DNA of 64,000 bases from Minisyncoccota bacterium (GTDB lineage: Bacteria > Patescibacteriota > Minisyncoccia > UBA6257 > UBA9933): contig JBAZLC010000003.1 in NCBI GenBank assembly GCA_041650415.1, positions 2,033 through 66,032 on the forward strand. Direction: 5' to 3'. The notes beneath the pieces were generated by a model, which worked only from the letters and a program-made list of their open reading frames with translations, was not told the DNA's origin and did not search any database. This document shows, one piece after another, positions 26,123 through 51,378 of this stretch. Position numbers and translations under genes: made by a program. The stretch's first letter is position 1. Each line of letters starts with the position of its first letter.

Positions 26123-26719
26123 ATGGAAGGTATCTATGAGTTTTTGTATTGGTGCCCAATGTGGGCGGTTGCGGGCGCGTTGTATTTCTTGGTTATCGGC
26201 ATCCTTTTTATTATCCGTGACTGGCAGGAAGGGTTGCCGTATAACATTTCCGTGGCGTCGCAGCAGGGTGATTTAGCTCTGATTGTGGCGATTCTCATCG
26301 GCGTGGAAATCCTGAAACGGCAACAATCGTTGCCGGAGTGGATGGGGACAAATTTTCAATTCATACTTTTCGCGGTGAGCGTTTCATTTGGTCTTTTATA
26401 CCAACTCGTCGTTTTTTTTCTCGGCAATAAGTGGGGGACGGCTGCGGACGCTTTTCATAACATGTTCATCGCGCCGTTGCTCCTGTTTATGCTGGTTACC
26501 ACAGTCCCAGTCACCGTGCTCTATGGCGTATGGTTTGAAAAAACATGTGTCATTTTTTGTCTACTTGTGTGGCTTTTGACCTTACTCTTTGATATCATAG
26601 ACGGTCGCCTTCAGCAACCGGAGTGGCACGCGGACCATGGTATCGACTTGCCGCTTTGTCGTGTGCGGCGACGAGACCGGTTAGGCGCCTTATTGGGAGT
26701 GCCAAAGAATATTCCTTAG
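26123..26719 (+). CDS. Hypothetical polytopic membrane protein (GC-richer than surrounding genome, SD-preceded)
   Basis: 198 aa and hydrophobic, with AGGAAGGAG 7 nt upstream of the ATG. Local GC is visibly higher. Confidence 0.5.
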   Translation: MEGIYEFLYWCPMWAVAGALYFLVIGILFIIRDWQEGLPYNISVASQQGDLALIVAILIGVEILKRQQSLPEWMGTNFQFILFAVSVSFGLLYQLVVFFLGNKWGTAADAFHNMFIAPLLLFMLVTTVPVTVLYGVWFEKTCVIFCLLVWLLTLLFDIIDGRLQQPEWHADHGIDLPLCRVRRRDRLGALLGVPKNIP

Positions 26720-26748
26720 ACTTACATATCGCATGCAGTCAATACGCC

Positions 26749-26778
26749 CGCCTTTTCTTCGGAAAAGGCGGTTTTTTA
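26749..26778. terminator. Intrinsic terminator (CGCCTTTTC-TTCG-GAAAAGGCG plus T-run) at a convergent junction
   Basis: Perfect 9-bp stem followed by TTTTTTATTTTT. Confidence 0.6.
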
Positions 26779-27870
26779 TTTTTCCAAAAGTTTTTTATAA
26801 GTTTTCAATAATTTTTTGCTTAAAAACTTTATGTCTTCTTTTTCGGCGAGTTTTTGGGCGTTTTTGCTCAAGCGCTCGCGGAGAGATTTATCTTCTATTA
26901 GTATATCAAGATATTTTTTAACTTCGTCGTCGTTTTTGGCTATCAAGCAATTTTCATTGTGAATCAGCCAGCCGCGGTAAGTCGGAAGTTCTTTGACCAA
27001 GATTGGCAAGCCCGTGGCGGCCGCTTCCAATAAAACCATGCCCTGGTTTTCTCCCGATGAAAGGAAAATAAAAATATCAATCGCGTTAAAAGCCGCGCAA
27101 ATATCGCCGCTGGAAACGTACCCCGTGAATTTAACGTTGTTTGGCAAAACTTTAGGCAGACCCTTTGCCATTAATTTGCTGTAAATTTTTCCGAACCAGA
27201 TAAATTGTTGTTCCGGATGAGTTTCCGCTAGTTTGATGAATTTGTCGACGCCTTTTCTCGGTATTACCAATCCGACGCTTCCAATGACCAGTTTTTCGCA
27301 ACCGAATTGTTTTTTGCCCTCTTCCTTTTTTTGGTGGTTTGCATAATAGATGGAGCAATCGACGCCGTTCGATTGGACGAATAATTTTTCGGCGGGCAGA
27401 CCATAATTTTCAATTAAAAGATTTTTCGTGTATTCGCTCGGGCAAAAAATTAAATCAGCCTGGCCGTAGGCATAGGCCAGGTATTTTTTGGCGATTGGGA
27501 AAATCAGTTTGCCGAAGCGGAAAACTTCCGGAATTTCTTCGGCTACAACATGCGCCCAAATAATCACTTTTTTCCCTTGTCGCCGGGCTTTTTTTATAAG
27601 CCATAAAGATTTTAGCCACGGAGTGTTTATTTGTAAGATATCACAGGAGCCGTCCCACTTTTCGGTAAATGGAATATTTAGCGATTTAAGAGTGCGTCTC
27701 TGATTTTCGTAAGAAGCCAATAATCCTGTGCCGATGTTTTTATAAAGAATTCCGCCTAGAAAATAATAATATTCCAGATAAAGGCAGATTTTTACGTTTA
27801 AAGCGGGAATGCCGTTGTTTTGCGCGGTAAGACGGACAAGTTTATTTTTTATTTTTGGCAATTTTTTCAT
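26776..27870 (-). CDS. Family 1 (GT4) glycosyltransferase
   Basis: 364 aa with a GT-B C-terminal domain including EGFGLP-like GMVLLEAAATGLPIL. Confidence 0.75.
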   Translation of the reverse strand: MKKLPKIKNKLVRLTAQNNGIPALNVKICLYLEYYYFLGGILYKNIGTGLLASYENQRRTLKSLNIPFTEKWDGSCDILQINTPWLKSLWLIKKARRQGKKVIIWAHVVAEEIPEVFRFGKLIFPIAKKYLAYAYGQADLIFCPSEYTKNLLIENYGLPAEKLFVQSNGVDCSIYYANHQKKEEGKKQFGCEKLVIGSVGLVIPRKGVDKFIKLAETHPEQQFIWFGKIYSKLMAKGLPKVLPNNVKFTGYVSSGDICAAFNAIDIFIFLSSGENQGMVLLEAAATGLPILVKELPTYRGWLIHNENCLIAKNDDEVKKYLDILIEDKSLRERLSKNAQKLAEKEDIKFLSKKLLKTYKKLLEK

Positions 27871-29026
27871 AAAAATCGATTAATTTATTCGTAATTTTTT
27901 CGTTGGAATATTCTTCGGCTTTTGCGCGGGATTCTTTACCGAATTTCGCGGCCAAACGGCTGTTGGAAAGAATTTTAAGCGCTTTTTCCGCCATATCTTT
28001 CGGATCATCGGTTTTGGCAAAAAAACCGTTTTTACCGTCTACCATAAGAGAGGGTTCCGACAGTCCTTTTTCTTTAACTACTACCAATGGCAATCCCGTT
28101 GCCATTGCCTCAAGGATCGCGAGAGGCATTACTTCATTTTTGCACGCAGTCATGTAAAGGTCGTTGGCCTGTATAATTTTTACGATATCTCCCTTAAAAG
28201 TATAATTATAAGGTCCGGTAAATATTACTTTTTCTTTCACTCCCAGTTCTTTGGCAAGTTTTTTTAATTTTTCTTCTTCCGGGCCGCCTCCCGCTATTAC
28301 CAATGTCAGGTCGGGCATTTTTTTAAGCATTATGACAAACGCGCGAATTATTTGGTCTATGCTTTTTTCATAACTTACGCGTCCGATGTAGCAAATAGAT
28401 TTTCCTTTGATTCCTAAGCTCTTTTTTATTTTTTCTTTCTCCTTTTTGCTTGAAACGGGGTTAAACGATTCAATATCTATCGAGTTTCGCAAAAGAACAA
28501 CCTCACTTTTCAGCCCGCTTTTTTTTAAATCTTTTAGCATCTCATCCGACGGCGTTATTACGAAATCGCAGCGGTTATAAAATCCGGCAGTCAGTTTCCA
28601 GGAAAGTTTTTTCATCCAATCGTAATCGAGTTTTACATGCTTTAAATAGTGGTCGTAAAAAGTGTGATGCGTGCCTATAAATGGAACTTTTAAAATTTTG
28701 GCGGTGAATAATCCTTCGGTACCAACCAAAAGCGGAGTGTGAACGTGAATAACGTCCGGTTTGAATTTTCTTAGATAGGGCAGTGAAATGCCGAGCGGTA
28801 TGGTAAAGCGTTCGCCCGGATAAACGAGCGCGGGCAAAGAAGGCAACCGGACTATTTTGAAATTATCCGATTGGGTAAAACGCGGGTCGTCACCGAAATT
28901 TTTAGCGACGGTAAATACCATTACTTTATGTCCGAGATCGGCCAGCATTTTGGCCGATTGATAGGCGACTTTGGCGACGCCGTTCGTCTGTGGAGGAAAT
29001 GTATCGCTAAAAATGGCTATTTTCAT
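27842..29026 (-). CDS. Family 1 (GT4) glycosyltransferase
   Basis: 394 aa with MKIAIFSDTFPPQTNGVA (GT4 N-terminus) and a C-terminal GT-B domain with EAMATGLPLV. Confidence 0.8.
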   Translation of the reverse strand: MKIAIFSDTFPPQTNGVAKVAYQSAKMLADLGHKVMVFTVAKNFGDDPRFTQSDNFKIVRLPSLPALVYPGERFTIPLGISLPYLRKFKPDVIHVHTPLLVGTEGLFTAKILKVPFIGTHHTFYDHYLKHVKLDYDWMKKLSWKLTAGFYNRCDFVITPSDEMLKDLKKSGLKSEVVLLRNSIDIESFNPVSSKKEKEKIKKSLGIKGKSICYIGRVSYEKSIDQIIRAFVIMLKKMPDLTLVIAGGGPEEEKLKKLAKELGVKEKVIFTGPYNYTFKGDIVKIIQANDLYMTACKNEVMPLAILEAMATGLPLVVVKEKGLSEPSLMVDGKNGFFAKTDDPKDMAEKALKILSNSRLAAKFGKESRAKAEEYSNEKITNKLIDFYEKIAKNKK

Positions 29027-29856
29027 ATTAGATTAGTATGTAAAAAATCAAGGATAATTTCAATGGTTTCGTCTTGAGAATCCGTCCCGATGAAATGGCT
29101 CTTGCTTTTTGAGATAATAATTTTAGCTCCTTTGATTGTTTTTGCCATATCCTTAATTTCCGTTTTGGTGACAAAAAAATCTTTTTTACTCCAAACAATA
29201 ACAGTGGGAATTTTTATCTTTTTAATCGATTCGCTGAAGTCAATGTCTGCCATACCCGAAATCATCCAGAAGTTTATTGATAATGGCATTGTCATAAAGC
29301 CGTGCCTTACAGATTCCCAATAACCTTCCGATTTTTTATGCTGGTAATAATAATAATTTTTTCTTTTTTGCCATATTAGCATTGCTGCCGCTAAATTAAC
29401 CAAACCGGCGGCAACGGGACTTAAAAAATCAATTCCCCAGTATCTAAAAGGATTAACATGATTCACGCTTATTAAAATTAGTCCCTTTACGTTTTCGGGG
29501 TGTTTATCAATGTATTCAAGGGCGATTTGTCCGCCGAATGAATAACCCACCAGAACAAAATTATTGATATTTTCCTTTTTGATTATTTTATTTAAATCAT
29601 CGGAAAAAACAGGCATTCGGTAAAGCTCTTTATTTTTTGATTTATCAGAAAATCCGTGTCCTCGTAAATCCGGCGCCAAAACGTTATATTTGCGTTCATG
29701 TAAAAATTTCATTGGCCCCTCCCAGGTTGTGTGGTTTGAAGAAAGGCCGTGGAGCAAAACCACAGTTGGCCTGCCCGGAAACGACATGTCGCAAAAATAA
29801 GCGATTTTTCCTTTGCCGGTTTCTGCCGATTTTTGTTCAAGATGACTATTGTTCAT
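29023..29856 (-). CDS. Alpha/beta-fold hydrolase
   Basis: VVLLHGLSSNHTTW and a GYSFGG nucleophile elbow. The start is probably the internal MNNSH methionine, which avoids overlap with the DedA gene. Confidence 0.7.
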   Translation of the reverse strand: MNNSHLEQKSAETGKGKIAYFCDMSFPGRPTVVLLHGLSSNHTTWEGPMKFLHERKYNVLAPDLRGHGFSDKSKNKELYRMPVFSDDLNKIIKKENINNFVLVGYSFGGQIALEYIDKHPENVKGLILISVNHVNPFRYWGIDFLSPVAAGLVNLAAAMLIWQKRKNYYYYQHKKSEGYWESVRHGFMTMPLSINFWMISGMADIDFSESIKKIKIPTVIVWSKKDFFVTKTEIKDMAKTIKGAKIIISKSKSHFIGTDSQDETIEIILDFLHTNLI

Positions 29857-30430
29857 TTTTTTTGTTTTTTTGGCGATAGAAAAATATAAAAATAACAATA
29901 ATGCCGATGCCTAGAGATGTGGCACTAAAAATTCCGAGAGCAGAATTTATATTGTCAATCGCTTCTCCAAAGAAATATCCCAATAAGAGCAAGCCAAAAG
30001 ATTTGGCGAGCGTCGCTATCAGGTTAGCTGAAACAAATTTGTAAAAAGGCATTCTAACCAGGCCGGCGGCAACGAGAAAAATTCCACCAATACCTTGCGC
30101 CATTTTGCCGACAAAGAGAGTTCTTGTTCCGTGTTTTTCAAAATGTTTTTCTATTGGGACGACTTTTTCAATGGGAAAACCGATGTATCTACCCCATCTT
30201 TCCAAGAATTTCTCTCGCCCCCATCTGCCGATGGCATAATAAATTATGTCGCCACCTACGTCACCGAAAATTACTACCAGATAAGTTGTGACAAAATTCA
30301 TGAGTCCAAGCGAGACAATAAAGCCGGCGATAACGGTAATTATCGGGCCTTCAACCACGACGACGGGTAATAAAAGAATGTATTTATACTGAATTAGAAG
30401 CTCTATTATTTGTTCAAGTGAAAAAAACAT
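29846..30430 (-). CDS. DedA/SNARE-associated (TVP38/TMEM64) family membrane protein
   Basis: 194 aa with DedA topology and a conserved G...R...G core. Confidence 0.7.
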   Translation of the reverse strand: MFFSLEQIIELLIQYKYILLLPVVVVEGPIITVIAGFIVSLGLMNFVTTYLVVIFGDVGGDIIYYAIGRWGREKFLERWGRYIGFPIEKVVPIEKHFEKHGTRTLFVGKMAQGIGGIFLVAAGLVRMPFYKFVSANLIATLAKSFGLLLLGYFFGEAIDNINSALGIFSATSLGIGIIVIFIFFYRQKNKKNEQ

Positions 30431-30509
30431 ATGCGTTTATTATAAAACTTTTTGATTAATTATAATAGATATTTTGAATAATTATAAACAAGAAGTATAA
30501 TATGAGTAC

Positions 30510-31430
30510 ATGAGAAACAAAATAATTTTCGGTGCGGTATTTGTTATTGTCGTAATTATAGCGGTAATAACTTTTTTGGGAATTAATAATAAACAGCCGG
30601 GCAACCAGGATAAAGCGGCGGTTTTTAATTGTACCGACGGAAAATCGATAACTGCCGTTTTCCATTTGCCCGATGATAAAAACGTTGACCTTGTTTTAAG
30701 TGATGGAAGAAAATTATCGATTCCGCGCGCGATTTCCGGCTCGGGCGCGAGGTATGCCAACGCGGATGAAAGTTTTGTTTTTTGGAACAAAGGCAACACC
30801 GCTTTTATCACCGAAAACGGGAAAACTACTTATCAAGATTGCGCGACAAATGATTCCGAAAGCAATTCCGCGCAAAATTATTCAACGGCGAAATATATCA
30901 GTGATAAATACGGCTTTGAAATAAGTTTTCCTTCAAATATCGTTCCCGAATATCAATTTAAACAGTATTATCATCTTTCCAATAATTGGCGCGCCGAAGC
31001 GTCTTCCGAGAGCAAAGGAGACGTTTTGTTTTCCATTCCGGTTTTTAGGGTGGACAATGGGGGAGTCGCCACGGGCAAACCCTATCCGCTTTATTTTGAC
31101 GCGGAAGTGAGAATAGGCGCAAGCTCTGACCCGGCAGAAGTCGCCAATTGTTACAAGCCTGACCCGGGCTATGAGAATCAGCAAATAACGGACGTTCAAA
31201 TAAATGGAGTTGATTTCAAGAAATTTGATTTTGGCGGCGCCGGAATGATGCAGTATCTTCAAGGAGTAAGTTATAGAATCGTCCGCGATAATGCTTGTTT
31301 GACAATAGAACAGATTAAAACCGGTTCAAGCTACAGAGACGACTCGATGCTTCCGGGAATTCCGGACGAACAGCTGAATGGCTATTACATAGAAGCGGGG
31401 AATATAATTCAAAGTTTAAAATTTAATTAA
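30510..31430 (+). CDS. Membrane-anchored protein with N-terminal MliC-like (lysozyme inhibitor) domain plus C-terminal domain of unknown function
   Basis: Signal/TM N-terminus, then CTDGKSITAVFH...SGSGARY...FVFWNKGNTAF...DC matching the MliC family signature. Confidence 0.6.
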   Translation: MRNKIIFGAVFVIVVIIAVITFLGINNKQPGNQDKAAVFNCTDGKSITAVFHLPDDKNVDLVLSDGRKLSIPRAISGSGARYANADESFVFWNKGNTAFITENGKTTYQDCATNDSESNSAQNYSTAKYISDKYGFEISFPSNIVPEYQFKQYYHLSNNWRAEASSESKGDVLFSIPVFRVDNGGVATGKPYPLYFDAEVRIGASSDPAEVANCYKPDPGYENQQITDVQINGVDFKKFDFGGAGMMQYLQGVSYRIVRDNACLTIEQIKTGSSYRDDSMLPGIPDEQLNGYYIEAGNIIQSLKFN

Positions 31431-31444
31431 TAAAAATAGGCAAA

Positions 31445-31473
31445 TAAAAAACGCCGGATTTCGGCGTTTTTTA
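31445..31473. terminator. Bidirectional intrinsic terminator (A-run, ACGCCG hairpin CGGCGT, T-run)
   Basis: AAAAAACGCCGGATTTCGGCGTTTTTT between convergent genes. Confidence 0.6.
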
Positions 31474-31475
31474 TG

Positions 31476-31868
31476 TTATTTTTGGGGCTGAAGATAAGCT
31501 TTTACTTTTTCAACAAACTCGTCTAAAGAAGAGCCTTTTTTGATGAAATCGGTGGCGCCCATGTCTTTTGCGGCTTTAATGTCGGTTTCGGGCATATTGG
31601 GGTCGCTGAAAGCGGTCAAAAAAGCTATTTTTGAATCTTTTAGTTCCGGAATTTTTTTGAGTTCATAAAATAAATCGACTCCGTTCATAATTGGCATTTT
31701 AACGTCAAGCAGAATTAAATCGGGAATTTCTTTTTTGGCAACTTCAAGCCCTTCCACGCCGTTGGTAGCGGAAATAATTTTAAATCCGGCGGAATTCAAT
31801 TTTGTCGTATAAATTTTTATGATTTCCGGTTCGTCGTCAACCATAAGTATTAATGGCGGGTTTTTCAT
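31476..31868 (-). CDS. Stand-alone response regulator receiver (CheY-like REC) protein
   Basis: 130 aa with DD...D phospho-acceptor and K motifs (LILMVDDEPEI...LILLDVKMP). Confidence 0.85.
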   Translation of the reverse strand: MKNPPLILMVDDEPEIIKIYTTKLNSAGFKIISATNGVEGLEVAKKEIPDLILLDVKMPIMNGVDLFYELKKIPELKDSKIAFLTAFSDPNMPETDIKAAKDMGATDFIKKGSSLDEFVEKVKAYLQPQK

Positions 31869-31910
31869 ATTTTCGTTTTTTAAGTTAATTATTTTAATGG
31901 GGGAATCAAT

Positions 31911-34061
31911 CTATGCTAATGGCAGACTGATAGTGAAAATACTTCCTTTTTCCGGCTCGCTCTTCTCAAGTTTAATGGAGCCCTTCATGGATTCCATAAG
32001 TAATTTTCCGATATAAAGGCCCATGCCGCTTCCGTATTCTTTACTGTGCATGAATTGGCCGTTAACGGTTTGGAATTTTTGGAAAAGCAAACTTTGGTCT
32101 TCGGGTTTTATTCCCATACCGGTATCGGAAACCGAAAGTTTGACAGAATCTTTTTCTTTTAAGATTTCCACAGTCACTCCGCCTTTTTCGGTGTATTGTA
32201 GCGCGTTAGATACGAGATTGATTATTACTTGTTTTGTTCTTTCCCGGTCGGCGACAACGCGCGTTTCGGCGCGTTCGGGAGGTGAAAATTTAATGAATAA
32301 ATTTTTAAAATCGGCTTGAGGTTTTAATGAATCTGTAACTTCTTTGGCGACTTCGGACAAATCGAAAGAATCGGAACGTAGTTTTATGTGGCCGCTTTCA
32401 ATTATGGCCAAATCCAAAAAATCATTTATTATTCCAAGCAATCTTATACTGCTCTTGTTAATAGATTTTACCATTTCTTTTGAATCTCCGCCAGAATTTG
32501 TGTTGAGCGCGGGCGATTCAAGCAGCAACTCGCTGTTGCCCCGGATGATTGCAAGGGGAGTTCTGAGTTCATGGGCGGCAATGGTAACAAAAGAATTTCT
32601 GGCTTCGTCTAAAAGTTTTTCCTGCGTAATATCTTCGATTAATATGACTATTCCGGCAATTTTGGAAGCGGACATTACGGGCGTAAAAAACAATTTCAAA
32701 AACTTTGAACCGAATCTGACGTCATCGGTCATAACGATTTTTCCGCTTGACGCCGCTTTCTCGTAAAAAGACTTCAAATTTATCGAATTTTTCACTTTAT
32801 TTTCTACTTCCTGAAAAGAGAACGGGTTTTTTTCTCCAAATTCGAATAAATGGCTGACGTATTCGTTTGACAGGAAAAGCTGATAATTGGCATCCAATAA
32901 TATAAATCCTAACGGCAAACTATTAATAGAAGAGAGCAAGCGCGCCTTTTCAAGTTCAAGTTCGCCGTAAGAAGCGCCAAGCCTTTCAGCCATTAAATTA
33001 AGAGTTGTTGCCAATTGGCCTATTTCATTATTTGAAGAAATATCGGCCTTCGCGTTGAGATTTCCCTTGCCGATTTCAACGGCGGTATTGGTTAAAATTT
33101 CAATAGGCTTTGTTATTCTTTTTGAAAGATATGGCGTAATAATAATATTAATGGTAAGTCCTACTAGTGTTAAAAATATCGCCCAAAAAGAAGTATTTAT
33201 TATCGGCGCATAAGCTTCCATTATCGGAACTTCTATTATTACTGCCCAGTCGGGTTGACCGAGTTGTTCCATTGTTGTCACAACATAATCGCCGGAAATT
33301 CCTCTTAAAATTTCCGCCTCTTCAATTATTCTTTCAGTCCCATTTACGAATTCGTTGACTTCTTCAAGGCTATCAGTTAAGTTTTCGCCTTTCAAAATGC
33401 GGCTGGTGTCATTAAATGCTATTAACCTTCCCTTTTTATCTACAACATATACCAAACCTTCGTTGCCGATTTTTATACTATTAACCAAATCCCACATAAA
33501 TTTTAAATTAGTTTCAGCTATCAGCATTTCTTTAGAATCTCCGAAAATATTTTTTATTGGTACGGCAATAGCAATCAACGGTTCGTTAGTAATTTCGTCT
33601 ATATATATTGGGCTAATATATGTATCGCCGGATTTTGTTATAGAAAAAGCCCTTTCTTTTTCTTCGGGGGTAACTAATTCAGGCATTTTTATCTCGGAAA
33701 GTCGGGAAACGGCAGTGAAATTTTCTCTATCGGGATATGCTATTATTAATTGGCGAAATGACTTGTCGGCGCCTAAAAGTTTTTCCAAAAAATCTATCTC
33801 GCCTTTTTCCGACGCATTTACCAAATTTGAAAACTTAGCAGTCGAATTTAATAAATTTATTTTTTCTTGAATGAAATTTTTAACGGCATTTCCTGCGTCT
33901 TCGGCAATAAGACGTTGTTCATTGGTAAGAGATTGCTTTTGTGATTGATAATTAAAAAAAATAGAAAAACTGTTGACGATTAAAAGGATTGCGCCGAATA
34001 GGGACGTAAAAACAACAATTAAAGTAAAAGTTATGCTTCTAAATTTAGTTTTTTTATTCAT
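31911..34061 (-). CDS. Sensor histidine kinase: TM, extracellular Cache-like domain, HAMP, PAS, HisKA, HATPase_c
   Basis: 716 aa with an H-box (AAHELRTPLAII), a G-box (GSGMGLYIGK) and a HAMP segment. Immediately upstream of the REC gene. Confidence 0.85.
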   Translation of the reverse strand: MNKKTKFRSITFTLIVVFTSLFGAILLIVNSFSIFFNYQSQKQSLTNEQRLIAEDAGNAVKNFIQEKINLLNSTAKFSNLVNASEKGEIDFLEKLLGADKSFRQLIIAYPDRENFTAVSRLSEIKMPELVTPEEKERAFSITKSGDTYISPIYIDEITNEPLIAIAVPIKNIFGDSKEMLIAETNLKFMWDLVNSIKIGNEGLVYVVDKKGRLIAFNDTSRILKGENLTDSLEEVNEFVNGTERIIEEAEILRGISGDYVVTTMEQLGQPDWAVIIEVPIMEAYAPIINTSFWAIFLTLVGLTINIIITPYLSKRITKPIEILTNTAVEIGKGNLNAKADISSNNEIGQLATTLNLMAERLGASYGELELEKARLLSSINSLPLGFILLDANYQLFLSNEYVSHLFEFGEKNPFSFQEVENKVKNSINLKSFYEKAASSGKIVMTDDVRFGSKFLKLFFTPVMSASKIAGIVILIEDITQEKLLDEARNSFVTIAAHELRTPLAIIRGNSELLLESPALNTNSGGDSKEMVKSINKSSIRLLGIINDFLDLAIIESGHIKLRSDSFDLSEVAKEVTDSLKPQADFKNLFIKFSPPERAETRVVADRERTKQVIINLVSNALQYTEKGGVTVEILKEKDSVKLSVSDTGMGIKPEDQSLLFQKFQTVNGQFMHSKEYGSGMGLYIGKLLMESMKGSIKLEKSEPEKGSIFTISLPLA

Positions 34062-34078
34062 TTGTCTTTCGTCTGTCT

Positions 34079-35080
34079 TTATCGAATTATCTCATCAGCT
34101 TTTTCCAAAAATCCTTCGCTTAAATTTAATCCCATTTCTTGGGCTGTTTTATAGTTTACGCGTAATACGGCTTCCGGAGTTACAATAGGAATAGTTCCCG
34201 GAGAAATTCCTTTAAAAATTTTATCTGCTAAAGGCGCAGCCAGTTTTCCTGTTTCGATATTATCCGAGACATAGCTGAATATTGCGCCATTCTCGGCCTC
34301 AAAAGCAGCGCCTCCGCTAATCGGTATTTTATGTTTAAGAGCAAATTCGCTTATTGTTTTCCAGCCATCGGGCGATTGAGCAATGTCTTCCGGCATTATA
34401 AATATTGCGTCTATTCCGGTATTTTCTAAAGAATCCCTCTTTTGTATTTCAGCTTTTAATTCTTCAACGGTTGTTACGGGAGATTTTACAAGATTAACAT
34501 TTAATTCAAGAGCTAACGGTTCAAGAATTTCAAGAGCAATTTTCGTTGCTGGATAGTTAACATTATAAATTATATACAGGTTTTTTAATTGGGGAACTAT
34601 TTCAAGTAATAACTTAAATTTTTTTGCGGTTAATTCCGGAGCGGGGTAACGCACTCCTGTGATATTTCCACCCGGTTCGCGCGTGTTGTTTACTAAATCT
34701 ACTCCTTCAAGCGTCGCCAACGCGAACACAATAGGTGTTCTAATATCTTTAGTTGCATCTTTTGCTGTTAAAGAGGGTTCTGTGGGCACCGTAAAAATTA
34801 GGTCGACTTTTTCTTCGAGAAATCTTTTAATTGCCGCTTTTTCGCCTTCTGGGTCGGCGTTTAGCCTGACAATATCGTAAATTACGTTTTTGTCCTCAAT
34901 ATAGCCTAAATTTGTCATTTCCTGCTTAAAACCTTCAGCTATATCATAAAATAATTCTATTCCTGATAAAATTCCGATGCGGTAAACTTTTTCCGATTTT
35001 TGTTGAAAGAATATATAGCAAGCTCCGGCTGCCAATAAAACAATTACGATTATTATTTCAATAAATAATCTTTTTTTCAT
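34079..35080 (-). CDS. ABC_sub_bind-family (PF04392-like) substrate-binding protein, membrane-anchored
   Basis: 333 aa with an N-terminal TM, then a periplasmic-binding-protein-like fold (RIGILSGIELFYD...TVPTEP). Confidence 0.65.
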   Translation of the reverse strand: MKKRLFIEIIIVIVLLAAGACYIFFQQKSEKVYRIGILSGIELFYDIAEGFKQEMTNLGYIEDKNVIYDIVRLNADPEGEKAAIKRFLEEKVDLIFTVPTEPSLTAKDATKDIRTPIVFALATLEGVDLVNNTREPGGNITGVRYPAPELTAKKFKLLLEIVPQLKNLYIIYNVNYPATKIALEILEPLALELNVNLVKSPVTTVEELKAEIQKRDSLENTGIDAIFIMPEDIAQSPDGWKTISEFALKHKIPISGGAAFEAENGAIFSYVSDNIETGKLAAPLADKIFKGISPGTIPIVTPEAVLRVNYKTAQEMGLNLSEGFLEKADEIIR

Positions 35081-35083
35081 AAT

Positions 35084-39445: not shown

Positions 39446-39619
39446 AGTATATTACGAATATATTGTAATAATGTTACTTTGGCAAGCCTGGATTACCGCT
39501 TTTGAGATACTAATTTTATTGACAATGGAAATTTTCGGATCCATACTGATTAAAGTTAAGCTTAGGTCTTAAACAATTAAACATGACTGTTTTTGAATAA
39601 ACAAAGAAAAGGAGGCTTT

Positions 39620-41062
39620 ATGAGTAATATTCAGAAAACGGGCAACGGTTTGAAAAAGCGGGTGTTCCCGGACGGCAAAAACGTTTATTTCATCGACACC
39701 AGCGCTATCATGCATAATCCGAGTGTCGTTGAGAAGCTCAGCTCCGACGGGAACGTGGTCGTTCTGTCAATTTACGTTTTGGCGGAGCTCGATGCCGCCA
39801 AAAAATTTCAGGATGAGAAAGGAGTAAACGCCCGTACGATCGCCCGGCTCTTGGACGAATACCGAAGCCAGGGATCATTGGTTTCCGGAGTCAAAACGAA
39901 AAGCGGCGGGATCATTGTTGTTGACCACAATGGCGATGATAAAGCTTTCAAAAAACGCATGGCGGGTCTCGAAAAGACCAACGATAATCGCATCATCGAT
40001 GCGGCTCTCAGATGGAAGAATGAATCCGAGGGAAAGTATAAAAAGATCGCCTTGGTGAGCAAGGACATCAATTTGCGGGTGAAGGCGAACGCTTTCGGTA
40101 TCGACTCCGAAAATTACGAAAGCGACAAAAGCATCGCCAGACTCGACGAATTGTACTCGGGTTTCGCCGGCGTTTCTTTGGAAAACCCCGATTTTCTCAG
40201 GTTATTAAACCAAACTGGTTCTTTTTCGGTAAACGCTTTATCTGAACCGGACCTGGCAAAAATCGGTGCGTTGATGCCGAATCAGTGCTTGGAGATCAGC
40301 GTCAGCGAGAAAACTGCGCTGGCGATTTTCAAAAAATCTCAAGGCGTGTTCACCCTCGTGAAAAAACCTGTTCGTCCCGGCCTCGAAGAAGAAAAAAACG
40401 TTTCAGTCAGACCCAGGAATAACGAGCAGGCATTCGCCTTCAAGTTGCTCATGGATCAAACGATTTCCTTGATTGCTTTATCGGGGAAGGCCGGTACCGG
40501 AAAGACTTTGTTCGCGCTTCTTGCGGCCTTTGAGCAATTGGGAAATCCGTACAAAGGGATTGAGGTTTATCGGCCGAACGAAGAAATCGGAAACAAACTG
40601 GGAGCTCTTCCTGGGGACATCGGCGAAAAATTCGGCCCATGGACAAAACCTATCTTCGACAACCTCAGGTTGGTTTTGAAAAACGGCAAGGACGACGGGA
40701 AACAACATACAGGCAAAGGCCACAATATGACGAGGGATTATCTGGTTGAGAGCGGCCAATTCGAGATTATGCCGATAAACTTTATCAGGGGGAGGAGTAT
40801 AAACAACGAATTCGTTATCGTCGACGAAGCGCAAAATTTATCTCCTCACGAGATAAAGACCATCCTTACCAGGGCGGGCGATGGCACAAAGGTTGTGTTG
40901 ACGGGCGATTGTTCCCAGATAGACACTCCTTATCTCGATCCAGTCAGTAACGGCCTCTCGTATGCGATCGAAAGATTCAAAGGACAGGAAGTTTTTGGAA
41001 CACTTACGCTTCAACGCGGCGAGAGATCGTATCTTTCCGAGCTGGCGGCTAAGTTGATGTAA
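39620..41062 (+). CDS. PhoH-like ATPase with N-terminal PIN domain (YlaK-type)
   Basis: VYFIDTSAIMHNP (PIN) and LIALSGKAGTGKT (PhoH P-loop). The ATG at 39620 is preceded by AAGGAGG. The gene is ~50% GC, clearly richer than neighbours. Confidence 0.8.
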   Translation: MSNIQKTGNGLKKRVFPDGKNVYFIDTSAIMHNPSVVEKLSSDGNVVVLSIYVLAELDAAKKFQDEKGVNARTIARLLDEYRSQGSLVSGVKTKSGGIIVVDHNGDDKAFKKRMAGLEKTNDNRIIDAALRWKNESEGKYKKIALVSKDINLRVKANAFGIDSENYESDKSIARLDELYSGFAGVSLENPDFLRLLNQTGSFSVNALSEPDLAKIGALMPNQCLEISVSEKTALAIFKKSQGVFTLVKKPVRPGLEEEKNVSVRPRNNEQAFAFKLLMDQTISLIALSGKAGTGKTLFALLAAFEQLGNPYKGIEVYRPNEEIGNKLGALPGDIGEKFGPWTKPIFDNLRLVLKNGKDDGKQHTGKGHNMTRDYLVESGQFEIMPINFIRGRSINNEFVIVDEAQNLSPHEIKTILTRAGDGTKVVLTGDCSQIDTPYLDPVSNGLSYAIERFKGQEVFGTLTLQRGERSYLSELAAKLM

Positions 41063-41069: not shown

Positions 41070-41110
41070 TTCCCCGGGCGCTGATTGATTTCGCGCCCGG
41101 GGATTTTTTA
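41070..41110 (+). terminator. Strong intrinsic terminator (TCCCCGGGCGC...GCGCCCGGGGA plus TTTTTT)
   Basis: 11-bp GC-rich stem and a T-run after the PhoH-like gene. Confidence 0.7.
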
Positions 41111-43918: not shown

Positions 43919-43950
43919 AAAAGGCCAATTCCGGGAGGAATTGGCCTTTG
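43919..43950. terminator. Bidirectional terminator hairpin (GGCCAATTCC-GGGA-GGAATTGGCC)
   Basis: Perfect 10-bp stem flanked by an A-run and T-rich sequence, between convergent obg and the GC-rich coiled-coil gene. Confidence 0.55.
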
Positions 43951-43979: not shown

Positions 43980-44630
43980 TTACTCGGTCTTCTCGGACAG
44001 GTCGGCGTCGGGGTCGTCGGCGATCGGCTGTGCCAGGATCTTCTGGATAGCGAGAATCGTGTTCTGCAGGTCGGTCCTCGTGGGCCGCTTGGGCAGATTG
44101 GCGATTTCGCTTTCCATCTTTTTCCTGGCGGCGATGAAGCGCAGGATGATTTCCTTGCGCTTGGCGCTCTTCCTCGAAAGTTTCTCGACGGCTTTGCCGA
44201 GCTTCTCCTTCTGCTCGACGAGACGATTGTTGTTCTGTTCGAACATTTCGGCCTTCTCGTCCGATTGCTGGATCTCTTCCCGGAGACGTTTAATGAGTTC
44301 TTCGGTCTCCGCGATACGCTCTTCGGCGTCTTTCTCGAAATCGGCGAGGCGCTTTTCCGTTTGGGTCAGTATTTCCTCGTACCAGGACAGCAGCGTGCCG
44401 AGCATGTCGATTTTGACTTTCATGCCGTTGATTTCGGCTTCGGCCAGGATCAGGGGAATGGGCTTCCTTTCGCCTGTCTTTTTGTCGACGGCTGTAAAAT
44501 CCAGGACCATGCCCGACATTTCCGAAGGCCGTCTCATTTCCATCAGTTTCTGGAAAATGTCGTCGGCGCTTTCGGGACCGCCCATGTTCGCCAACCCCAT
44601 CAATGTTTTCATGATCTGCGATCGCTCCAT
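43980..44630 (-). CDS. Hypothetical coiled-coil protein, ~216 aa, encoded in a ~55% GC island with a canonical SD
   Basis: The minus-strand ORF starting MERSQIMKTLMGLANMGG... is charged and coiled-coil-like (EEILTQTEKRLADFEKDAEERIAETEELIKRLREEIQQ). It is preceded by AAAGGAG. The overlapping plus-strand ORFs have antisense-like composition. Confidence 0.6.
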   Translation of the reverse strand: MERSQIMKTLMGLANMGGPESADDIFQKLMEMRRPSEMSGMVLDFTAVDKKTGERKPIPLILAEAEINGMKVKIDMLGTLLSWYEEILTQTEKRLADFEKDAEERIAETEELIKRLREEIQQSDEKAEMFEQNNNRLVEQKEKLGKAVEKLSRKSAKRKEIILRFIAARKKMESEIANLPKRPTRTDLQNTILAIQKILAQPIADDPDADLSEKTE

Positions 44631-44808
44631 CTTTTTCTCCTTTCCTTGAGTTTGGTTTCCGATTAAAACACTCCTATAAAAAAACGCTATTACGCGTGTA
44701 ATTTGTATCAATGTGCTATTTTAAAACTGCGCTTATTTAAGCAAATTTATGATTTTTTGTCAAATAAAAAGCCGCTTCCGCGTCTCTCGGTGTTTGTTAT
44801 AGTTTATT

Positions 44809-47729: not shown

Positions 47730-47734
47730 ATAAT

Positions 47735-48106
47735 TTACTTATTTGTTGGCGAATAAAAAACAAATTTATATCCGTCCGGGTCTTTGACGACAAATTCCCG
47801 TTTGCCCCACGGCCAGGTTTTCGGCTCGGTGCGGGGGACTACGCCGTTGTTTTTAATGAATTCAAAATATTTATCTATGTCTTCAACTTCAATATAAGTA
47901 TAAATGCCTGTTCCTTTTGGCTTAATGCCCGACTCGTTTTTAATCGGCGTTTTGTTTTCATCAATAAAAGCGAGAGTAAAATCGCCAAGTTTAATACGGA
48001 CGCCGTCATCGGATTTTTTCGCGTCAAAACCGAGCTGTTTATAAAACTCGTGAGTTTTTTCGAGATTACTGGCGTAAAATAAATTTGAATGTATGCGTTT
48101 AATCAT
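47735..48106 (-). CDS. VOC/glyoxalase-bleomycin resistance family protein
   Basis: 123 aa with a glyoxalase-like beta-alpha-beta-beta-beta pattern. Confidence 0.6.
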   Translation of the reverse strand: MIKRIHSNLFYASNLEKTHEFYKQLGFDAKKSDDGVRIKLGDFTLAFIDENKTPIKNESGIKPKGTGIYTYIEVEDIDKYFEFIKNNGVVPRTEPKTWPWGKREFVVKDPDGYKFVFYSPTNK

Positions 48107-48125
48107 GTATAGATTTTATTTTAAA

Positions 48126-48515
48126 TTATCTTTTCCACTCCGCGACTTCGGGGTGAAAATCTACTTGGCGTTCCGGTATCCCAAGCGATAACCCGTAACG
48201 CTTTGCTTCATCGTATTGTTCTTTGTTTTTCCTATCCACATAAAAAATCTTGTTTCGGAAAATAATATAGTGGTGCGTTTCATTTTTAAAATCGGCGTAC
48301 CATTCGTGGTCGGGGTCAAGCGACTTGCTGATTATTTCGGCAATCTCTTTAGCTTTATTCTCCGGGATTTTAACGGTATATAACGTCCATTGCGAAAGCC
48401 ATGGTGTTTCATGTTCTTCCGTCACTTCTTCAACCTCGGTGCTTAAAATCTCAATACTTTCAAGGACATCTCTACTTTCCAAACTTTCTTCAATTATTAC
48501 TCCTTTGTAGTCCAT
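48126..48515 (-). CDS. Hypothetical protein (129 aa)
   Basis: ORF with no recognisable family. Confidence 0.4.
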   Translation of the reverse strand: MDYKGVIIEESLESRDVLESIEILSTEVEEVTEEHETPWLSQWTLYTVKIPENKAKEIAEIISKSLDPDHEWYADFKNETHHYIIFRNKIFYVDRKNKEQYDEAKRYGLSLGIPERQVDFHPEVAEWKR

Positions 48516-48565
48516 ACCAAGTTTATTATATCAAAAAATCGTTGTTTTGGAGAGGGAAGCTATAT

Positions 48566-48594
48566 TGACAAAATCAAACAAATCTGTTATAATA
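48566..48594 (+). promoter_or_regulatory. Consensus sigma70 promoter (TTGACA, 17-nt spacer, TATAAT)
   Basis: TTGACA at 48566-48571 and TATAAT at 48589-48594, read by eye. It is divergent from the 48126..48515 gene. Confidence 0.6.
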
Positions 48595-48600
48595 TAGGCG

Positions 48601-48895
48601 GAAGGGATGAGAAAAAATTCTTTCCTGAACTGGCAAAATGCCATTTCAAAAGTTCTTTACAATAAGAAACTGGGTAGCGGAGCGTACTAGACTAAATCGA
48701 GAATTCATATTTTTACATTTTTCCTTTATTTTTCTCATATAAAGAATTCTCGATTCCTCTCCATATCTTCAGTCCTTGCCGGAACCATACAATTTTTCTT
48801 TTCCGGGAATTGGACCAACTGAAGATGGAGAGGATAGCTTTCGCCATCCCATCCCTTATAAAGGAGACTCTCGCGAGCCTCCTTTCTTTTTTTAT
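48601..48895 (+). ncRNA. Candidate ~300-nt structured ncRNA of unknown class (consensus promoter to intrinsic terminator, no convincing ORF)
   Basis: 5' AAGGGATG pairs with 3' CATCCCTT. CGAGAATTC (~48700) pairs with GAATTCTCG (~48746). CTCTCCATATCTTCAGT pairs with ACTGAAGATGGAGAG as a long helix. The terminator is AAAGGAG-ACTCTCGCGAGC-CTCCTTT plus a T-run at 48860-48895. The only ORF is 27 codons (48608-48691). Confidence 0.45.
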
Positions 48896-48936
48896 ATTTA
48901 TTTTGTCGTGGATAATGATGGTTTGGGGATTACTTA

Positions 48937-49827
48937 TTAATTAGTGTTAATAAATATTTTTAATACCCTTGATTCAATTTTTTTAATAAATTTTTCCCAT
49001 CGACCATCTTCTATTTTATCGCTATGTTTTAAAGGACCAATATTTTCTTGAGATAAAATATAATTTTGTTTATTTATATCGCTAAGATTAATAAAATAAA
49101 ATTGATTGTTAAGTTCTTTTGTTTCTTCGTTAAATGGAGATGCTATAAGAAAATTATCATATTTTTCTAAAACAGCCATTTTTATATTTCCATTTGAAAC
49201 TATATAGAGATGAGCATTTTGTGCTATTCTATGCCCCAAATCTTGACAAAAAGTTATCATTAGTAAAATTATAAATAATATCAACGAAAAAAAACCGAAC
49301 GAGCTTTTTCCAAACCATCTTTTAATCTGATTTTCTAAAAAGAATTTGTCTAAAAAAAATGTTATTATTGGTTCCTTTTCGTTTTTTTCTTTAAATTTCG
49401 GGACTAAAGTGAAAAGAATTAAAATATAGAGAAAAAATAAAGATGTAACAATCAAACCTTCAATAAGGATATATAAGTACGATTTCGTAATAAAAGCTCT
49501 CATGAACCAGATTGGTATACTATAAGCAAAAAAGACACTTAAAAATTGAATTTGTACGGAGTCTTTTTTTTGAGCAATGAGCCTATAGACGAGTTTCGCC
49601 ATCATTCCCGCCATAAGTAAAGATAGAAAGATAAAAAAAGAAACAAATACTATTTCAAACGTAGAGATATTTATAAATTTTGATGGTATTCCAAAATAAT
49701 CAAAATAAGCACTTCTATATACAGACGCAAGCCCATATCCGAGAGAAGTTAGTAGTCCTAAAAAAATTGCGTCGCTAAAAAATCTACCTAGATTATTATT
49801 TTGTTTTGTTTTTGATGTATTTTCCAT
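48937..49827 (-). CDS. Hypothetical polytopic membrane protein, very AT-rich (296 aa)
   Basis: Long ORF with multiple TM helices. It is a compositional outlier, noticeably more AT-rich than neighbours. Confidence 0.5.
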   Translation of the reverse strand: MENTSKTKQNNNLGRFFSDAIFLGLLTSLGYGLASVYRSAYFDYFGIPSKFINISTFEIVFVSFFIFLSLLMAGMMAKLVYRLIAQKKDSVQIQFLSVFFAYSIPIWFMRAFITKSYLYILIEGLIVTSLFFLYILILFTLVPKFKEKNEKEPIITFFLDKFFLENQIKRWFGKSSFGFFSLILFIILLMITFCQDLGHRIAQNAHLYIVSNGNIKMAVLEKYDNFLIASPFNEETKELNNQFYFINLSDINKQNYILSQENIGPLKHSDKIEDGRWEKFIKKIESRVLKIFINTN

Positions 49828-49919
49828 TATTTTTTATAATTACATTTTTTCATTCTTGATTGACTCCCGATGTCATAATTGTATATCAAAAATTGACATT
49901 ATCAAACCGAAATTTTTAA

Positions 49920-49948
49920 TTGACGTCTTTCTTGATTTGGGTTATTAT
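49920..49948 (+). promoter_or_regulatory. Putative promoter (TTGACG, 17-nt spacer, TATTAT), followed by a CCTGT/ACAGG hairpin and a strong SD, for the pyrF-pyrE fusion
   Basis: Read by eye. AAGGAGGT lies 8 nt before the ATG at 50012. Confidence 0.4.
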
Positions 49949-50011
49949 CCTGTCAGCAAACAGGGAGCATTTATTGCTTTATTTTACAACTAAACAAGGA
50001 GGTAAAAGGTT

Positions 50012-51316
50012 ATGTTAGCAAGAGAAAGGATTATCGTCGCGTTGGATGTTGGTGACATGGACAAGGCCTTGTTTTTTGTGAGCCTCCTCGCTTCCCGGGG
50101 AGTGTGTTTCAAGGTCGGACTAGAGCTCATAACTTCGGTTGGCGGGCCGGAAATCACCAAAACCATGAGTATGCTCAACGGCAGAGTTTTCTACGACGGG
50201 AAGTTCAATGACATTCCCAACACAATCGCCGGAGCCGCCAAAGCGGTCGCCAAGATGAAGGTGAAGATGTTCAATTTGCACGCTTCATCTGGCATCGAAG
50301 GCATGCGGGCGGCCGTGGCAAACAAAGGCCAGTCGCTTGTCCTGGCAGTGACCGTTCTCACCTCGCTTGAGGAGAACAATGCCCATCTGATTTTCGGCGC
50401 GCCGAGCAAGGCGAAAGTCTTGCAGTTCGCGCGCGACGCGAAACTCGCCGGCTGCGACGGCATCGTTTGCTCGCCGCAGGAACTCGAATTCCTCGCGAAG
50501 AACGACGAGGTCAAAAGCCTGCTTAAGGTCACGCCTGGAATCCGGGCATCCAATGCAGCGCCTGACGACCAGAAAAGGACTCTGACGCCGGAAGAGGCGG
50601 CATACAAGGGCGCGGATTTCCTGGTCATCGGACGACCCATCACGACCGCGAAAGACCCGGTTGAGGCGGTCCTGGAAATCTCGGCGGAAATCGCCAGAGG
50701 GCTGAAAAAGAAACTCCACATGCTTCTGTTCAATTCGCAGAAGATTAAGTTTGGGGCTTTCAAACTCAAACTTCATGAAGAGTTCCCCAATGCGCCGCTG
50801 TCGCCGATTTACATGGACATCAGGAACCTGTCCGAGCCAGCCTACGCGCTTATCGGAGATATCCTGCACGAATTCGTCGTGCGAAACGGCATCGAGTTCG
50901 ACTACGTCATCGGAATCCCGAAGGCGGGCGAACCCATCGGCCGCGCTCTGGCGAACGCAATCGGCAAACCGCTTCTGCGGATGGGAAAGATCGAAGACAA
51001 GGGCAGCCGGAAGATCTCGGCGAATATTCTCGACCAGTTCGAGCCGGGCAAACGCGTCATTTTGGTGGATGATGTTATCACTAAGGCGGACACCAAGAGA
51101 GAAGCCATTAACGCCGTGAAGGCAAACGGTCTCGAGGTGGCGGCCACTGTGGTGCTCTACGACCGGCAACAGGGCGGCCTGCATGACCTACTCAGTGAAG
51201 GCAATCACGCCTACGCCGTTACCACACTGGAAGACACTCTCAGTTTTCTCGTTAGTGAGAAGAAAATCTCCAGCGAGAAGATGGACGACGTCATGGCGTA
51301 CATAACCGCAAAATAG
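50012..51316 (+). CDS. Bifunctional orotidine-5'-phosphate decarboxylase (N-terminal) / orotate phosphoribosyltransferase (C-terminal) fusion
   Basis: N-terminal IIVALDV...KVGLEL...DGKFNDIPNT matches the PyrF type. The C-terminal PRTase motif VILVDDVITKADT with flanking IGIPKAGEPIG matches PyrE. The gene is ~55% GC with a canonical SD. Confidence 0.75.
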   Translation: MLARERIIVALDVGDMDKALFFVSLLASRGVCFKVGLELITSVGGPEITKTMSMLNGRVFYDGKFNDIPNTIAGAAKAVAKMKVKMFNLHASSGIEGMRAAVANKGQSLVLAVTVLTSLEENNAHLIFGAPSKAKVLQFARDAKLAGCDGIVCSPQELEFLAKNDEVKSLLKVTPGIRASNAAPDDQKRTLTPEEAAYKGADFLVIGRPITTAKDPVEAVLEISAEIARGLKKKLHMLLFNSQKIKFGAFKLKLHEEFPNAPLSPIYMDIRNLSEPAYALIGDILHEFVVRNGIEFDYVIGIPKAGEPIGRALANAIGKPLLRMGKIEDKGSRKISANILDQFEPGKRVILVDDVITKADTKREAINAVKANGLEVAATVVLYDRQQGGLHDLLSEGNHAYAVTTLEDTLSFLVSEKKISSEKMDDVMAYITAK

Positions 51317-51340
51317 GGAACTCGACAATTCCCAAAAACC

Positions 51341-51378
51341 AAAAAGCCCCGCAATTTGCATCGCGGGGCGTTTTTTTA
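51341..51378 (+). terminator. Intrinsic terminator (GCCCCGC...GCGGGGC plus TTTTTTT)
   Basis: AAAAAGCCCCGCAATTTGCATCGCGGGGCGTTTTTTTATC. Confidence 0.65.

Follow-up and report, generated by a model that had tools for sequence, protein, structure and literature searches.

Four atypical genes

The stretch of DNA considered here, the window, comprises 64 kb from a genome of Candidatus Paceibacterota (Paceibacteria, candidate phyla radiation, CPR; assembly GCA_041650415.1, contig JBAZLC010000003.1). Its GC content is 40.6%. Four of its genes stand apart, and their origin and mode of expression are the subject of this text. They code for a membrane protein of 198 amino acids (aa; 26123..26719, plus strand), a PIN-PhoH ATPase of 480 aa (39620..41062, plus strand), a coiled-coil protein of 216 aa (43980..44630, minus strand) and a pyrF-pyrE fusion of 434 aa (50012..51316, plus strand). 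These four are the GC-richest genes of the window and at the same time those with the strongest Shine-Dalgarno (SD) sites.

The gene set comprises 70 to 72 genes taken from the list of open reading frames (ORFs). GC content and GC content at third codon positions (GC3) were determined for 72 (68 native genes and the four), SD sites for 70. The native genes have a mean GC of 0.401 (sd 0.036) and a mean GC3 of 0.402 (sd 0.056). The four occupy ranks 1 to 4 of 72 in both respects. GC ranges from 0.48 to 0.55 and GC3 from 0.57 to 0.76, with z-scores of 2.2-4.2 and 3.0-6.3, respectively. The individual values for GC and GC3 are 0.487 and 0.573 (membrane protein), 0.482 and 0.586 (PIN-PhoH), 0.547 and 0.756 (coiled-coil protein), and 0.552 and 0.708 (pyrF-pyrE). 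Each GC "island" is exactly one gene; the flanking 300 nt on either side have a GC of 0.30-0.43.

SD sites were scored as the duplex energy between a 16S tail, ACCUCCUUU, and positions -20 to -4; an Rfam scan found no rRNA gene in the window, and the loci retrieved from relatives contain none either. The strongest sites of the 70 belong to the same four genes: -12.5 kcal/mol for pyrF-pyrE, -11.8 for PIN-PhoH, -9.4 for the membrane protein and -9.0 for the coiled-coil protein. The next-best site reaches -5.8 kcal/mol and the median over all genes +0.1; among random 17-mers, 0.6% are at -9 kcal/mol or stronger. The top four for SD and the top four for GC3 overlap completely, which is expected by chance about once in 9x10^5 (1/C(70,4)). 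A preliminary description of this DNA had noted four GC-richer genes with strong SD sites in an AT-rich, SD-poor genome and native genes of about 38-40% GC lacking SD sites. Both observations hold. Some of its details need correction. The GC content of 50-56% which it gave for the islands fits two genes (0.547 and 0.552), while the other two are at 48-49%. SD sites do precede all four genes, yet the distance to the ATG is 4-9 nt instead of 6-8 nt. The terminators said to bracket the genes exist after every one of them, but on the downstream side only.

The units are built alike. A sigma-70-like promoter with -35 and -10 elements is positioned 45-100 nt upstream, followed by a leader, the SD site, the coding sequence and, directly 3' of it, a strong terminator with a GC-rich stem. 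The GGAGG-type motif ahead of the start is preserved in orthologues. Judged from these signals, the SD sites of the four genes are probably functional, and the genes would constitute a leadered, SD-dependent minority in a leaderless or SD-less genome.

The native genes present a different picture. Ahead of their starts -10-like hexamers cluster at a distance of 6-9 nt; 20 hexamers fall into these four positions, 8 of them perfect TATAAT. The starts at 29846, 30510, 42911, 45283, 48126, 52345 and 61700 are among those with such a box. Leaderless transcripts typically show a -10 hexamer at just this distance from the ATG, and promoter-proximal native genes thus look leaderless. Operon-internal native genes have A-rich, SD-free junctions. 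Translation in this genome may accordingly start in two ways, mostly SD-less or leaderless, and SD-led in four leadered, monocistronic cassettes.

Sister genomes

Four syntenic sister loci were available: L087 (GCA_964428615.1), L090 (JGI Ga0212124) and the Logan assemblies L173 and L175. Their core proteins (YchF, BipA, DEAD and Obg) are 87-96% identical to those of the window. Identity at fourfold degenerate sites of the core genes is 0.5-0.73, and the core synonymous divergence (dS) is about 0.8-1.2. L089 (for PhoH) and L092 (for the membrane gene) are more distant relatives. The common gene order is YchF-PAP2-[membrane]-GT-GT-hydrolase-VTT...BipA-[PIN-PhoH]-FKBP-DEAD-Obg-[SD-led coiled-coil gene], where GT stands for glycosyltransferase and brackets mark the genes under study. 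The slots are fixed and their occupancy is patchy. The membrane gene and PhoH are each absent from one sister and present in others; the slot after obg is always filled.

The NCBI copy of L090 (GCA_007279775.1, QYPD01000021.1), which holds the membrane homologue, is labelled Spirochaetia. Gene order and the core identity of 87-96% place it in the family of the window within the Paceibacteria, and it is likely mis-binned or mislabelled.

Background GC3 spans about 0.22 to 0.42 among close relatives (BipA, DEAD and Obg of the window, L087, L173 and L175). Polarised changes at fourfold sites suggest a gain of GC in the lineage of the window (in BipA 27-29 AT->GC against 3) and a loss in L173 and L175. 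This amounts to a fast compositional divergence within one family.

The PIN-PhoH gene

Pfam assigns PIN_4 (PF13638) to residues 24-167 (8e-25) and PhoH (PF02562) to residues 263-466 (2.5e-45), i.e., a PIN domain followed by the P-loop domain of PhoH, and the protein matches phrog_2765 with 6e-93. The identity given in the preliminary description is confirmed, as is that of the pyrF-pyrE fusion. The promoter, TTGACA-17-CATACT, was located by the promoter scan at 39519..39547 (plus strand), and the SD site AAGGAGG at 39609..39615 ends 4 nt before the ATG. The terminator, CCCCGGGCG...CGCCCGGGG followed by six T (41072..41109, plus strand), was read by eye; it escaped the scan because its loop of 11 nt exceeds the limit of 8 nt.

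PIN-PhoH is located between BipA and FKBP in L087 (77% identity), L173 (89%) and L175 (64%). In L090 it is absent, and BipA and FKBP are adjacent. The SD site is retained in the relatives with -10.2 kcal/mol in L087, -12.2 in L089 and -12.3 in L173 and L175. A promoter block of 30 nt, ATTGACAnTnGAAATTTTyAGATTCATACT, has hardly changed between the window, L173, L087 and L175. The GC3 of PhoH compared with its neighbours is 0.586 against 0.40 in the window, 0.44 against 0.31 in L087, 0.37 against 0.22 in L173, and 0.39 against 0.30 in L175. The excess amounts to 0.09-0.18 per sister; it is 0 in L089.

The alleles of PhoH do not follow the flanking genes. For BipA, L173 and L175 are the closest pair, with a fourfold-site identity of 0.73 and 94% identical amino acids. 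For PhoH the same pair has a fourfold-site identity of 0.30, where saturation predicts 0.26, and 63% identical amino acids. Between the window and L175 the fourfold-site identity of PhoH is 0.30, between the window and L173 it is 0.60. PhoH is saturated just where the BipA flank is closest, i.e., the alleles are incongruent with their flanking genes. By this comparison divergent PhoH alleles appear to have been swapped into the same slot.

Between BipA and PIN-PhoH the window contains an ECF (extracytoplasmic function) sigma factor (38876-39445) and a DUF5667 protein (38027-38875). Both are encoded on the minus strand, divergent from PhoH. In L087, L173 and L175 BipA directly precedes PhoH, which marks the pair as a lineage-specific insertion.

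The membrane-protein gene

The promoter TTGACA-17-TAATAT (26043..26071, plus strand, promoter scan) is followed by the SD site GGAAGGAGA (26106..26114), 8 nt before the ATG, and the gene is followed by an intrinsic terminator at 26748..26778 (plus strand) with a stem of 10 bp, 6 GC pairs and a T-run. The protein has several long hydrophobic predicted helices and belongs to an unnamed family; neither Pfam nor PHROG gave a match, and just 16 homologues were detected among 5.8 billion proteins. The AlphaFold model has a pLDDT (predicted local distance difference test) of 85; it matched no PDB fold at E<=0.001, and the fold gave no function. The gene is transcribed divergently from PAP2 and adjoins an envelope cluster of two family 4 glycosyltransferases (GT4), a hydrolase and a VTT protein.

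In L090 the gene is positioned at the same place (64% identity, SD GGAGG, GC3 0.53 compared with about 0.42). In L092 it is next to the same glycosyltransferase cluster; the SD is retained and the GC excess is gone. In L087 it is absent, and PAP2 and the glycosyltransferase are 13 bp apart. The GGAGG is kept in the orthologues, with duplex energies of -10.6 kcal/mol in L090 and -11.5 in L092. The block of promoter and leader has about 90% identity to that of L090 and is still recognisable in L092.

The surroundings are variable in their own right. The cluster PAP2-GT4-GT4-hydrolase-VTT (25366-30430) shows 48-69% amino acid identity between sisters with largely saturated synonymous sites, compared with 87-96% in the core flanks. 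The first glycosyltransferase of the window shares 73% identity with its counterpart in the distant L092 and only 65% with those of the sisters. This suggests that the envelope cluster has been swapped between genomes, as happens at surface-glycan loci. About 5.6 kb of lower-GC genes (30510-36067, GC 0.31-0.42) separate VTT from BipA; their products are an MliC-like protein, a response regulator, a dCache-HAMP histidine kinase and two substrate-binding proteins. The block is missing in L087, in which VTT and BipA are adjacent, and in L090, which has one unrelated ORF of 114 aa at this place. This indel has more of the character of an island than any of the four genes under study.

The coiled-coil gene and the slot after obg

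This gene is read from the minus strand. Its promoter (TTGACA at 44763-44758) and a leader of about 100 nt occupy 44644..44763. The SD site AAAGGAGA (44636..44643) is 5-6 nt before the ATG, and the terminator at 43920..43949, with a stem of 13 bp, is the strongest match of the terminator scan. The protein belongs to no Pfam family. A phmmer search of 1.84 billion representative proteins yielded a single true relative, P0258, with 56% identity, and this protein is encoded in the post-obg slot of L175, SD-led and with a GC3 of 0.63.

In all five genomes the slot after obg is filled by an SD-led coiled-coil ORF with an elevated GC3 (+0.11 to +0.35). The occupants in L087 (88 aa) and L090 (113 aa) can barely or not at all be aligned with that of the window. 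A leader block of about 65 nt has nevertheless been preserved in L087 and, in part, in L175, even though the coding sequences hardly align; L090 differs.

The pyrF-pyrE fusion

The promoter of the fusion is TTGACG-17-TATTAT (49920..49948, plus strand, promoter scan). The SD site AAGGAGG at 49996..50002, the window's strongest, is 9 nt before the ATG. Downstream follows a two-way intrinsic terminator (51346..51377) with a stem of 10 bp, 7 GC pairs and a T-run on the plus strand. Pfam identifies the orotidine monophosphate (OMP) decarboxylase (OMPdecase, PF00215, residues 6-222, 6.7e-46) as the N-terminal domain and the orotate phosphoribosyltransferase (Pribosyltran, PF00156, residues 287-392, 1.7e-11) as the C-terminal domain. 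The two halves of UMP (uridine monophosphate) synthase are therefore joined in a single ORF, and 47 full-length fused homologues were found.

The best non-self match is 67% identical. The closest relatives (58-67%) are Patescibacteria wherever the name or the gene neighbourhood tells the source. The neighbours of the gene differ in every genome which carries it. Of 80 loci examined for synteny around rarA, in order to locate the pyrF-pyrE site in relatives, none has the neighbours found in the window. In L176 the fusion is 65% identical to that of the window, BipA merely 46%; there it directly follows an apparent smpB and the 3' end of a tmRNA (transfer-messenger RNA) gene, by a reading by eye only. 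In hosts of low GC the fusion always exceeds its surroundings: its GC3 is 0.49 in a host of 0.22 (L005) and 0.53 in a host of 0.24 (L006). For GC the corresponding values are 0.53 against 0.40 (L082) and 0.50 against 0.34 (L060). Standalone pyrE and pyrF genes show the same GC behaviour. A promoter block, TTGcyTTTTT...TAgTCT, recurs before the fusion in L082, L084 and L085 despite different contexts.

The leaders of the fusion (49950-50011 in the window, and those of L082, L084, L085 and L002) contain a stem-loop followed by AUUUG or AUUUU, with stems of differing sequence. A pyrimidine-responsive attenuator was considered and rejected, because the folding of the leaders is not significantly better than that of shuffled controls (z -0.1 to -1.6) and their alignment is poor; it remains a lead. 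Rfam reported nothing at E<=1 over 48480-50030, which includes the leader. The single tRNA of the window is a tRNA-Gln (53440-53512, minus strand). A repeat of its 3' end was not found in the window, and the single repeat of at least 14 nt (of the 5' end, at 60634) is inside a gene and looks like chance. Lacking a repeat of tRNA-Gln which resembles an attachment (att) site, the notion of a tRNA-linked island was dropped.

Low-GC outliers are also present near the fusion. A 296-aa orphan (48937-49827, minus strand) has a GC of 0.259 and a GC3 of 0.19 (z -3.7), and a NUDIX gene (52345-52881, minus strand) a GC of 0.305. An ORF with a LAGLIDADG domain (52957-54225) is beside tRNA-Gln. Except for rarA and pyrF-pyrE, the genes between 44.8 and 54 kb have no counterpart in the loci L082-L172 which were searched. 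The whole stretch of 44-54 kb looks like a variable region.

Origin of the GC excess

The four genes differ from ribosomal-protein and native genes in their choice of synonymous codons. CTC plus CTG account for 53% compared with 14-16%, ATC for 64% compared with about 20%, AAG for 48% compared with 15-25% and GAG for 44% compared with 13-19%. In five codon classes (fourfold degenerate, purine-ending, pyrimidine-ending, Ile and Leu) the four genes match the backgrounds of loci with a GC of 0.50-0.60 and above. Their amino acid composition is native-like.

Composition is thus atypical in all four cases. A gene history at odds with that of the genome is apparent for two, PhoH and pyrF-pyrE, not for the membrane and coiled-coil genes. 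The patchy presence in fixed slots, the alleles of PhoH and the distribution of pyrF-pyrE support the view that genes have been exchanged horizontally inside the group. The horizontal acquisition which had been proposed earlier is in part sustained, namely in the donor-like composition and in an exchange within the group; its other parts, a recent date and a host as donor, are not. Membrane, PIN-PhoH and coiled-coil genes occupy the same loci in the sisters with promoters and SD sites conserved, hence these three are not recent arrivals. In a survey of Patescibacteria about 83% of the detected transfers into the group came from other Patescibacteria, and most were not recent (PMC12455944).

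On balance we consider it probable, by a modest degree of confidence, that the four genes are cassettes of a patescibacterial flexible pool, exchanged within the group, and that their GC content is an imprint of GC-richer donors. The cassettes would hold fixed slots, vary in presence from genome to genome and be replaced by divergent alleles; pyrF-pyrE would instead move between unrelated genomic contexts. Transfer may have proceeded by DNA uptake and subsequent recombination, because neither integrase nor transposase nor att repeat is evident. The GC-rich codon usage would be the imprint of patescibacterial genomes of about 50-60% GC in the pool. The SD site would persist because a leadered mRNA needs it. 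In the distant relatives L089 (PhoH) and L092 (membrane gene) the GC excess is lost and the SD kept, as expected from amelioration with functional retention of the SD.

Several observations weigh against an imprint of donors in a flexible pool. The cassettes are GC-richer than the host in every sister, never poorer, and the backgrounds within the family reach a GC3 of about 0.42 only. At fourfold sites PhoH has changed on the window branch 10 times from AT to GC and 3 times from GC to AT, i.e., there is no decay towards AT; BipA displays the same upward drift (27 against 3). In the comparison of the window with L090 the membrane gene (64% identity) has diverged to the same extent as the adjacent PAP2 and glycosyltransferase genes (63-66%), a pattern compatible with simple vertical inheritance and a loss in L087. 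GC3 excess is largest in the coiled-coil gene (+0.35 in the window, +0.33 in L175); no homologue was detected outside the sister genomes, and thus no GC-rich donor pool is visible. Pfam domains of integrases or transposases are missing among the called genes of the window, as are att or direct repeats. Finally, none of the sequences of the sister genomes includes the pyrF-pyrE site.

These points lead to the strongest competing explanation, to which we assign a minor yet appreciable probability. The four genes could be long-term residents whose GC3 excess was not inherited from a donor but is actively maintained, either by selection on leadered, SD-dependent mRNAs (stability, avoidance of A-rich internal initiation) or by GC-biased gene conversion at loci which recombine often. 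The PhoH offset is similar across lineages with drifted backgrounds (window, L087, L173 and L175), and the PhoH changes on the window branch run mostly from AT to GC. The occupants of the post-obg slot are all SD-led and GC3-enriched even though the proteins have diverged beyond recognition, the coiled-coil gene is family-specific, and promoters and leaders are better conserved than coding sequences. Since the largest excess occurs in a family-confined gene, cassettes are never GC-poorer and changes run from AT to GC, maintenance is a live rival. However, the offset is absent in L089 and L092 despite the SD, the highly divergent glycosyltransferase genes nearby have no offset, and equal offsets in the sisters are also expected from a single old acquisition. 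The idea that SD-led genes are GC-richer throughout the phylum was rejected as a general law. It appeared with p ~1e-9 in loci chosen for pyrF-pyrE; in 42 loci centred on rarA, an unbiased sample, the GC3 of SD-led genes differs by +0.02 only (p ~0.06-0.1), which also speaks against maintenance.

A further reading for this family of Paceibacteria likewise has a minor yet appreciable probability. The few leadered, SD-dependent genes would be an expression class of their own, and their GC-rich synonymous sites would not be foreign relics but actively maintained, by selection linked to SD-dependent translation or mRNA survival in a system otherwise leaderless and A-rich, or by recombination-driven, GC-biased conversion at hypervariable slots. 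The clearest case for maintained GC would be the coiled-coil gene, with a GC3 of 0.63-0.76 in hosts of 0.30-0.40, a conserved leader and a diverged protein.

A recent acquisition from a GC-richer organism outside the Patescibacteria, e.g., the host of an episymbiont, is improbable. Codon profiles do resemble those of genomes of 50-60% GC and more, fused pyrF-pyrE genes exist in Dehalococcoidia and Humimicrobiaceae at 44-46% identity, and PIN-PhoH relatives in Geobacter/Desulfuromonadales at 42-43%. Yet the named close homologues of the flagged genes all belong to Paceibacterota, Parcubacteria or Patescibacteria (pyrF-pyrE 50-67%, PhoH 41-59%), closer unnamed homologues are found in syntenic sister contigs (PhoH 64-89%, membrane protein 52-66%), and relatives outside the CPR reach about 45% identity or less. 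Synteny with sisters at a core dS of about 1 holds for three of the four genes. The prior expectation of best matches outside the native lineage has not been borne out, and the idea of an outside donor fails at the phylum level. A viral origin was likewise discarded: the two orphan proteins have no relatives among the viral contigs of IMG/VR, only PIN-PhoH clearly matches phage families in PHROGs, the generic PhoH-like ones, and the coiled-coil protein has merely weak, tape-measure-like matches.

Very improbable is a translational codon bias of highly expressed native genes. The native ribosomal-protein genes and tuf have a GC3 of 0.40-0.48, slightly above the lowest native genes, but the ribosomal-protein genes favour TTG, AGA, GGA, GTT, AAA (75%) and GAA (87%), and the CTC/CTG, ATC, AAG and GAG of the four genes point in a different direction and are not a stronger form of the same bias. 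A chimeric assembly or bin, in which GC-richer fragments were joined to an AT-rich contig, was the alternative offered by the preliminary description; nothing beyond the composition itself speaks for it, and it can be regarded as excluded, for 40012-61316 (21.3 kb) is 100% identical in a second contig (ERZ27247363, 32.7 kb), L087, L090, L173 and L175, from other samples, show these junctions again together with their promoters and neighbours, and every GC-rich segment has its limits precisely at those of a gene, the regulatory signals matching.

Relation to known systems

SD-poor Bacteroidota have kept the anti-SD and use it on few genes; as in the window, SD sites are rarely used across the genome, and a handful of genes carry strong, conserved ones. 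The window belongs to a different phylum, and its SD-led genes are accessory or flexible, not targets of ribosomal-protein autoregulation. With bifunctional UMP synthases the fusion shares OMP decarboxylase and orotate phosphoribosyltransferase in one polypeptide. The animal enzyme UMPS has the opposite domain order; here the decarboxylase comes first. The decarboxylase-first family occurs mainly in Patescibacteria and has relatives in Chloroflexota. Genomic islands linked to tRNA or tmRNA genes are alike in atypical GC, and pyrF-pyrE is about 2 kb from tRNA-Gln and, in L176, after the apparent tmRNA gene. Unlike such islands, the units described here are single genes with neither an integrase nor a direct repeat of the tRNA end.

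Genomes of mixed leaderless and SD-led initiation (the "leaderless" group of GeneMarkS-2, PMC6028130; mycobacteria, PMC3898074) have in common with the window a -10 box at a constant, short spacing to the start codon of many first genes and leadered genes with SD sites. There, an SD site precedes the majority of leadered and operon-internal genes, whereas here the operon-internal genes have none and about 4 of 70 genes are SD-led; further, the SD-led genes of the window are compositionally distinct. The single genes and islets exchanged by Patescibacteria (PMC12455944, mSystems 2025) are similar in that they are atypical single genes, have their nearest relatives in Patescibacteria, are mostly not recent and serve metabolic or envelope functions. 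They differ from the present case in its fixed syntenic slots, its promoters which are better conserved than the coding sequences, and the exact coincidence with the only SD-led genes of an otherwise SD-less genome.

The closest known kind is this flexible, mostly intra-phylum gene exchange of Patescibacteria, here in a genome of the leaderless type. Modestly new is that "leadered with SD" coincides with "GC-rich" and "flexible slot", and that promoters outlast the conservation of their genes. The cassettes present a checkable picture of the flexible gene set of ultra-small CPR genomes: single genes with their own promoter, leader, SD site and terminator, in fixed slots, swapped among relatives. 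A one-gene route from orotate to UMP could matter to an organism reliant on scavenged precursors. The lineage is also a natural system in which leaderless or SD-less and SD-led initiation exist side by side and are separable by sequence, useful for gene calling and expression studies in Patescibacteria. Caution is advised: anomalies of GC plus SD in CPR bins should not be taken for host DNA or misassembly until sister genomes have been checked.

Other features of the window

Three regions devoid of convincing genes deserve mention. At Rfam gathering thresholds the whole window yielded the tRNA only and no known riboswitch or leader RNA. The genes rpsJ and rplC are normally neighbours in the S10 operon. 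In the window rpsJ (4486-4824) and rplC (5771-6370) are separated by 946 nt without a convincing ORF (4825-5770), for which Rfam returned matches at chance level only.

A perfect promoter TTGACA-16-TATAAT with a TG element (61276-61303, plus strand) precedes some 350 nt of sequence rich in GC (about 0.58) and poor in ORFs, which ends with a terminator at about 61634-61670. No Rfam match was obtained for 61276-61670 even at E<=1, and ARAGORN detected no tmRNA in it. This segment resembles an unannotated structured RNA gene.

Another perfect extended promoter (48565-48593, TTGACA-17-TATAAT) faces about 340 nt without an ORF on the same strand, up to 48936 (plus strand), again with no Rfam match in the region 48565-48936. 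This stretch, which the gene with 26% GC directly follows, may specify a small RNA or an antisense transcript.

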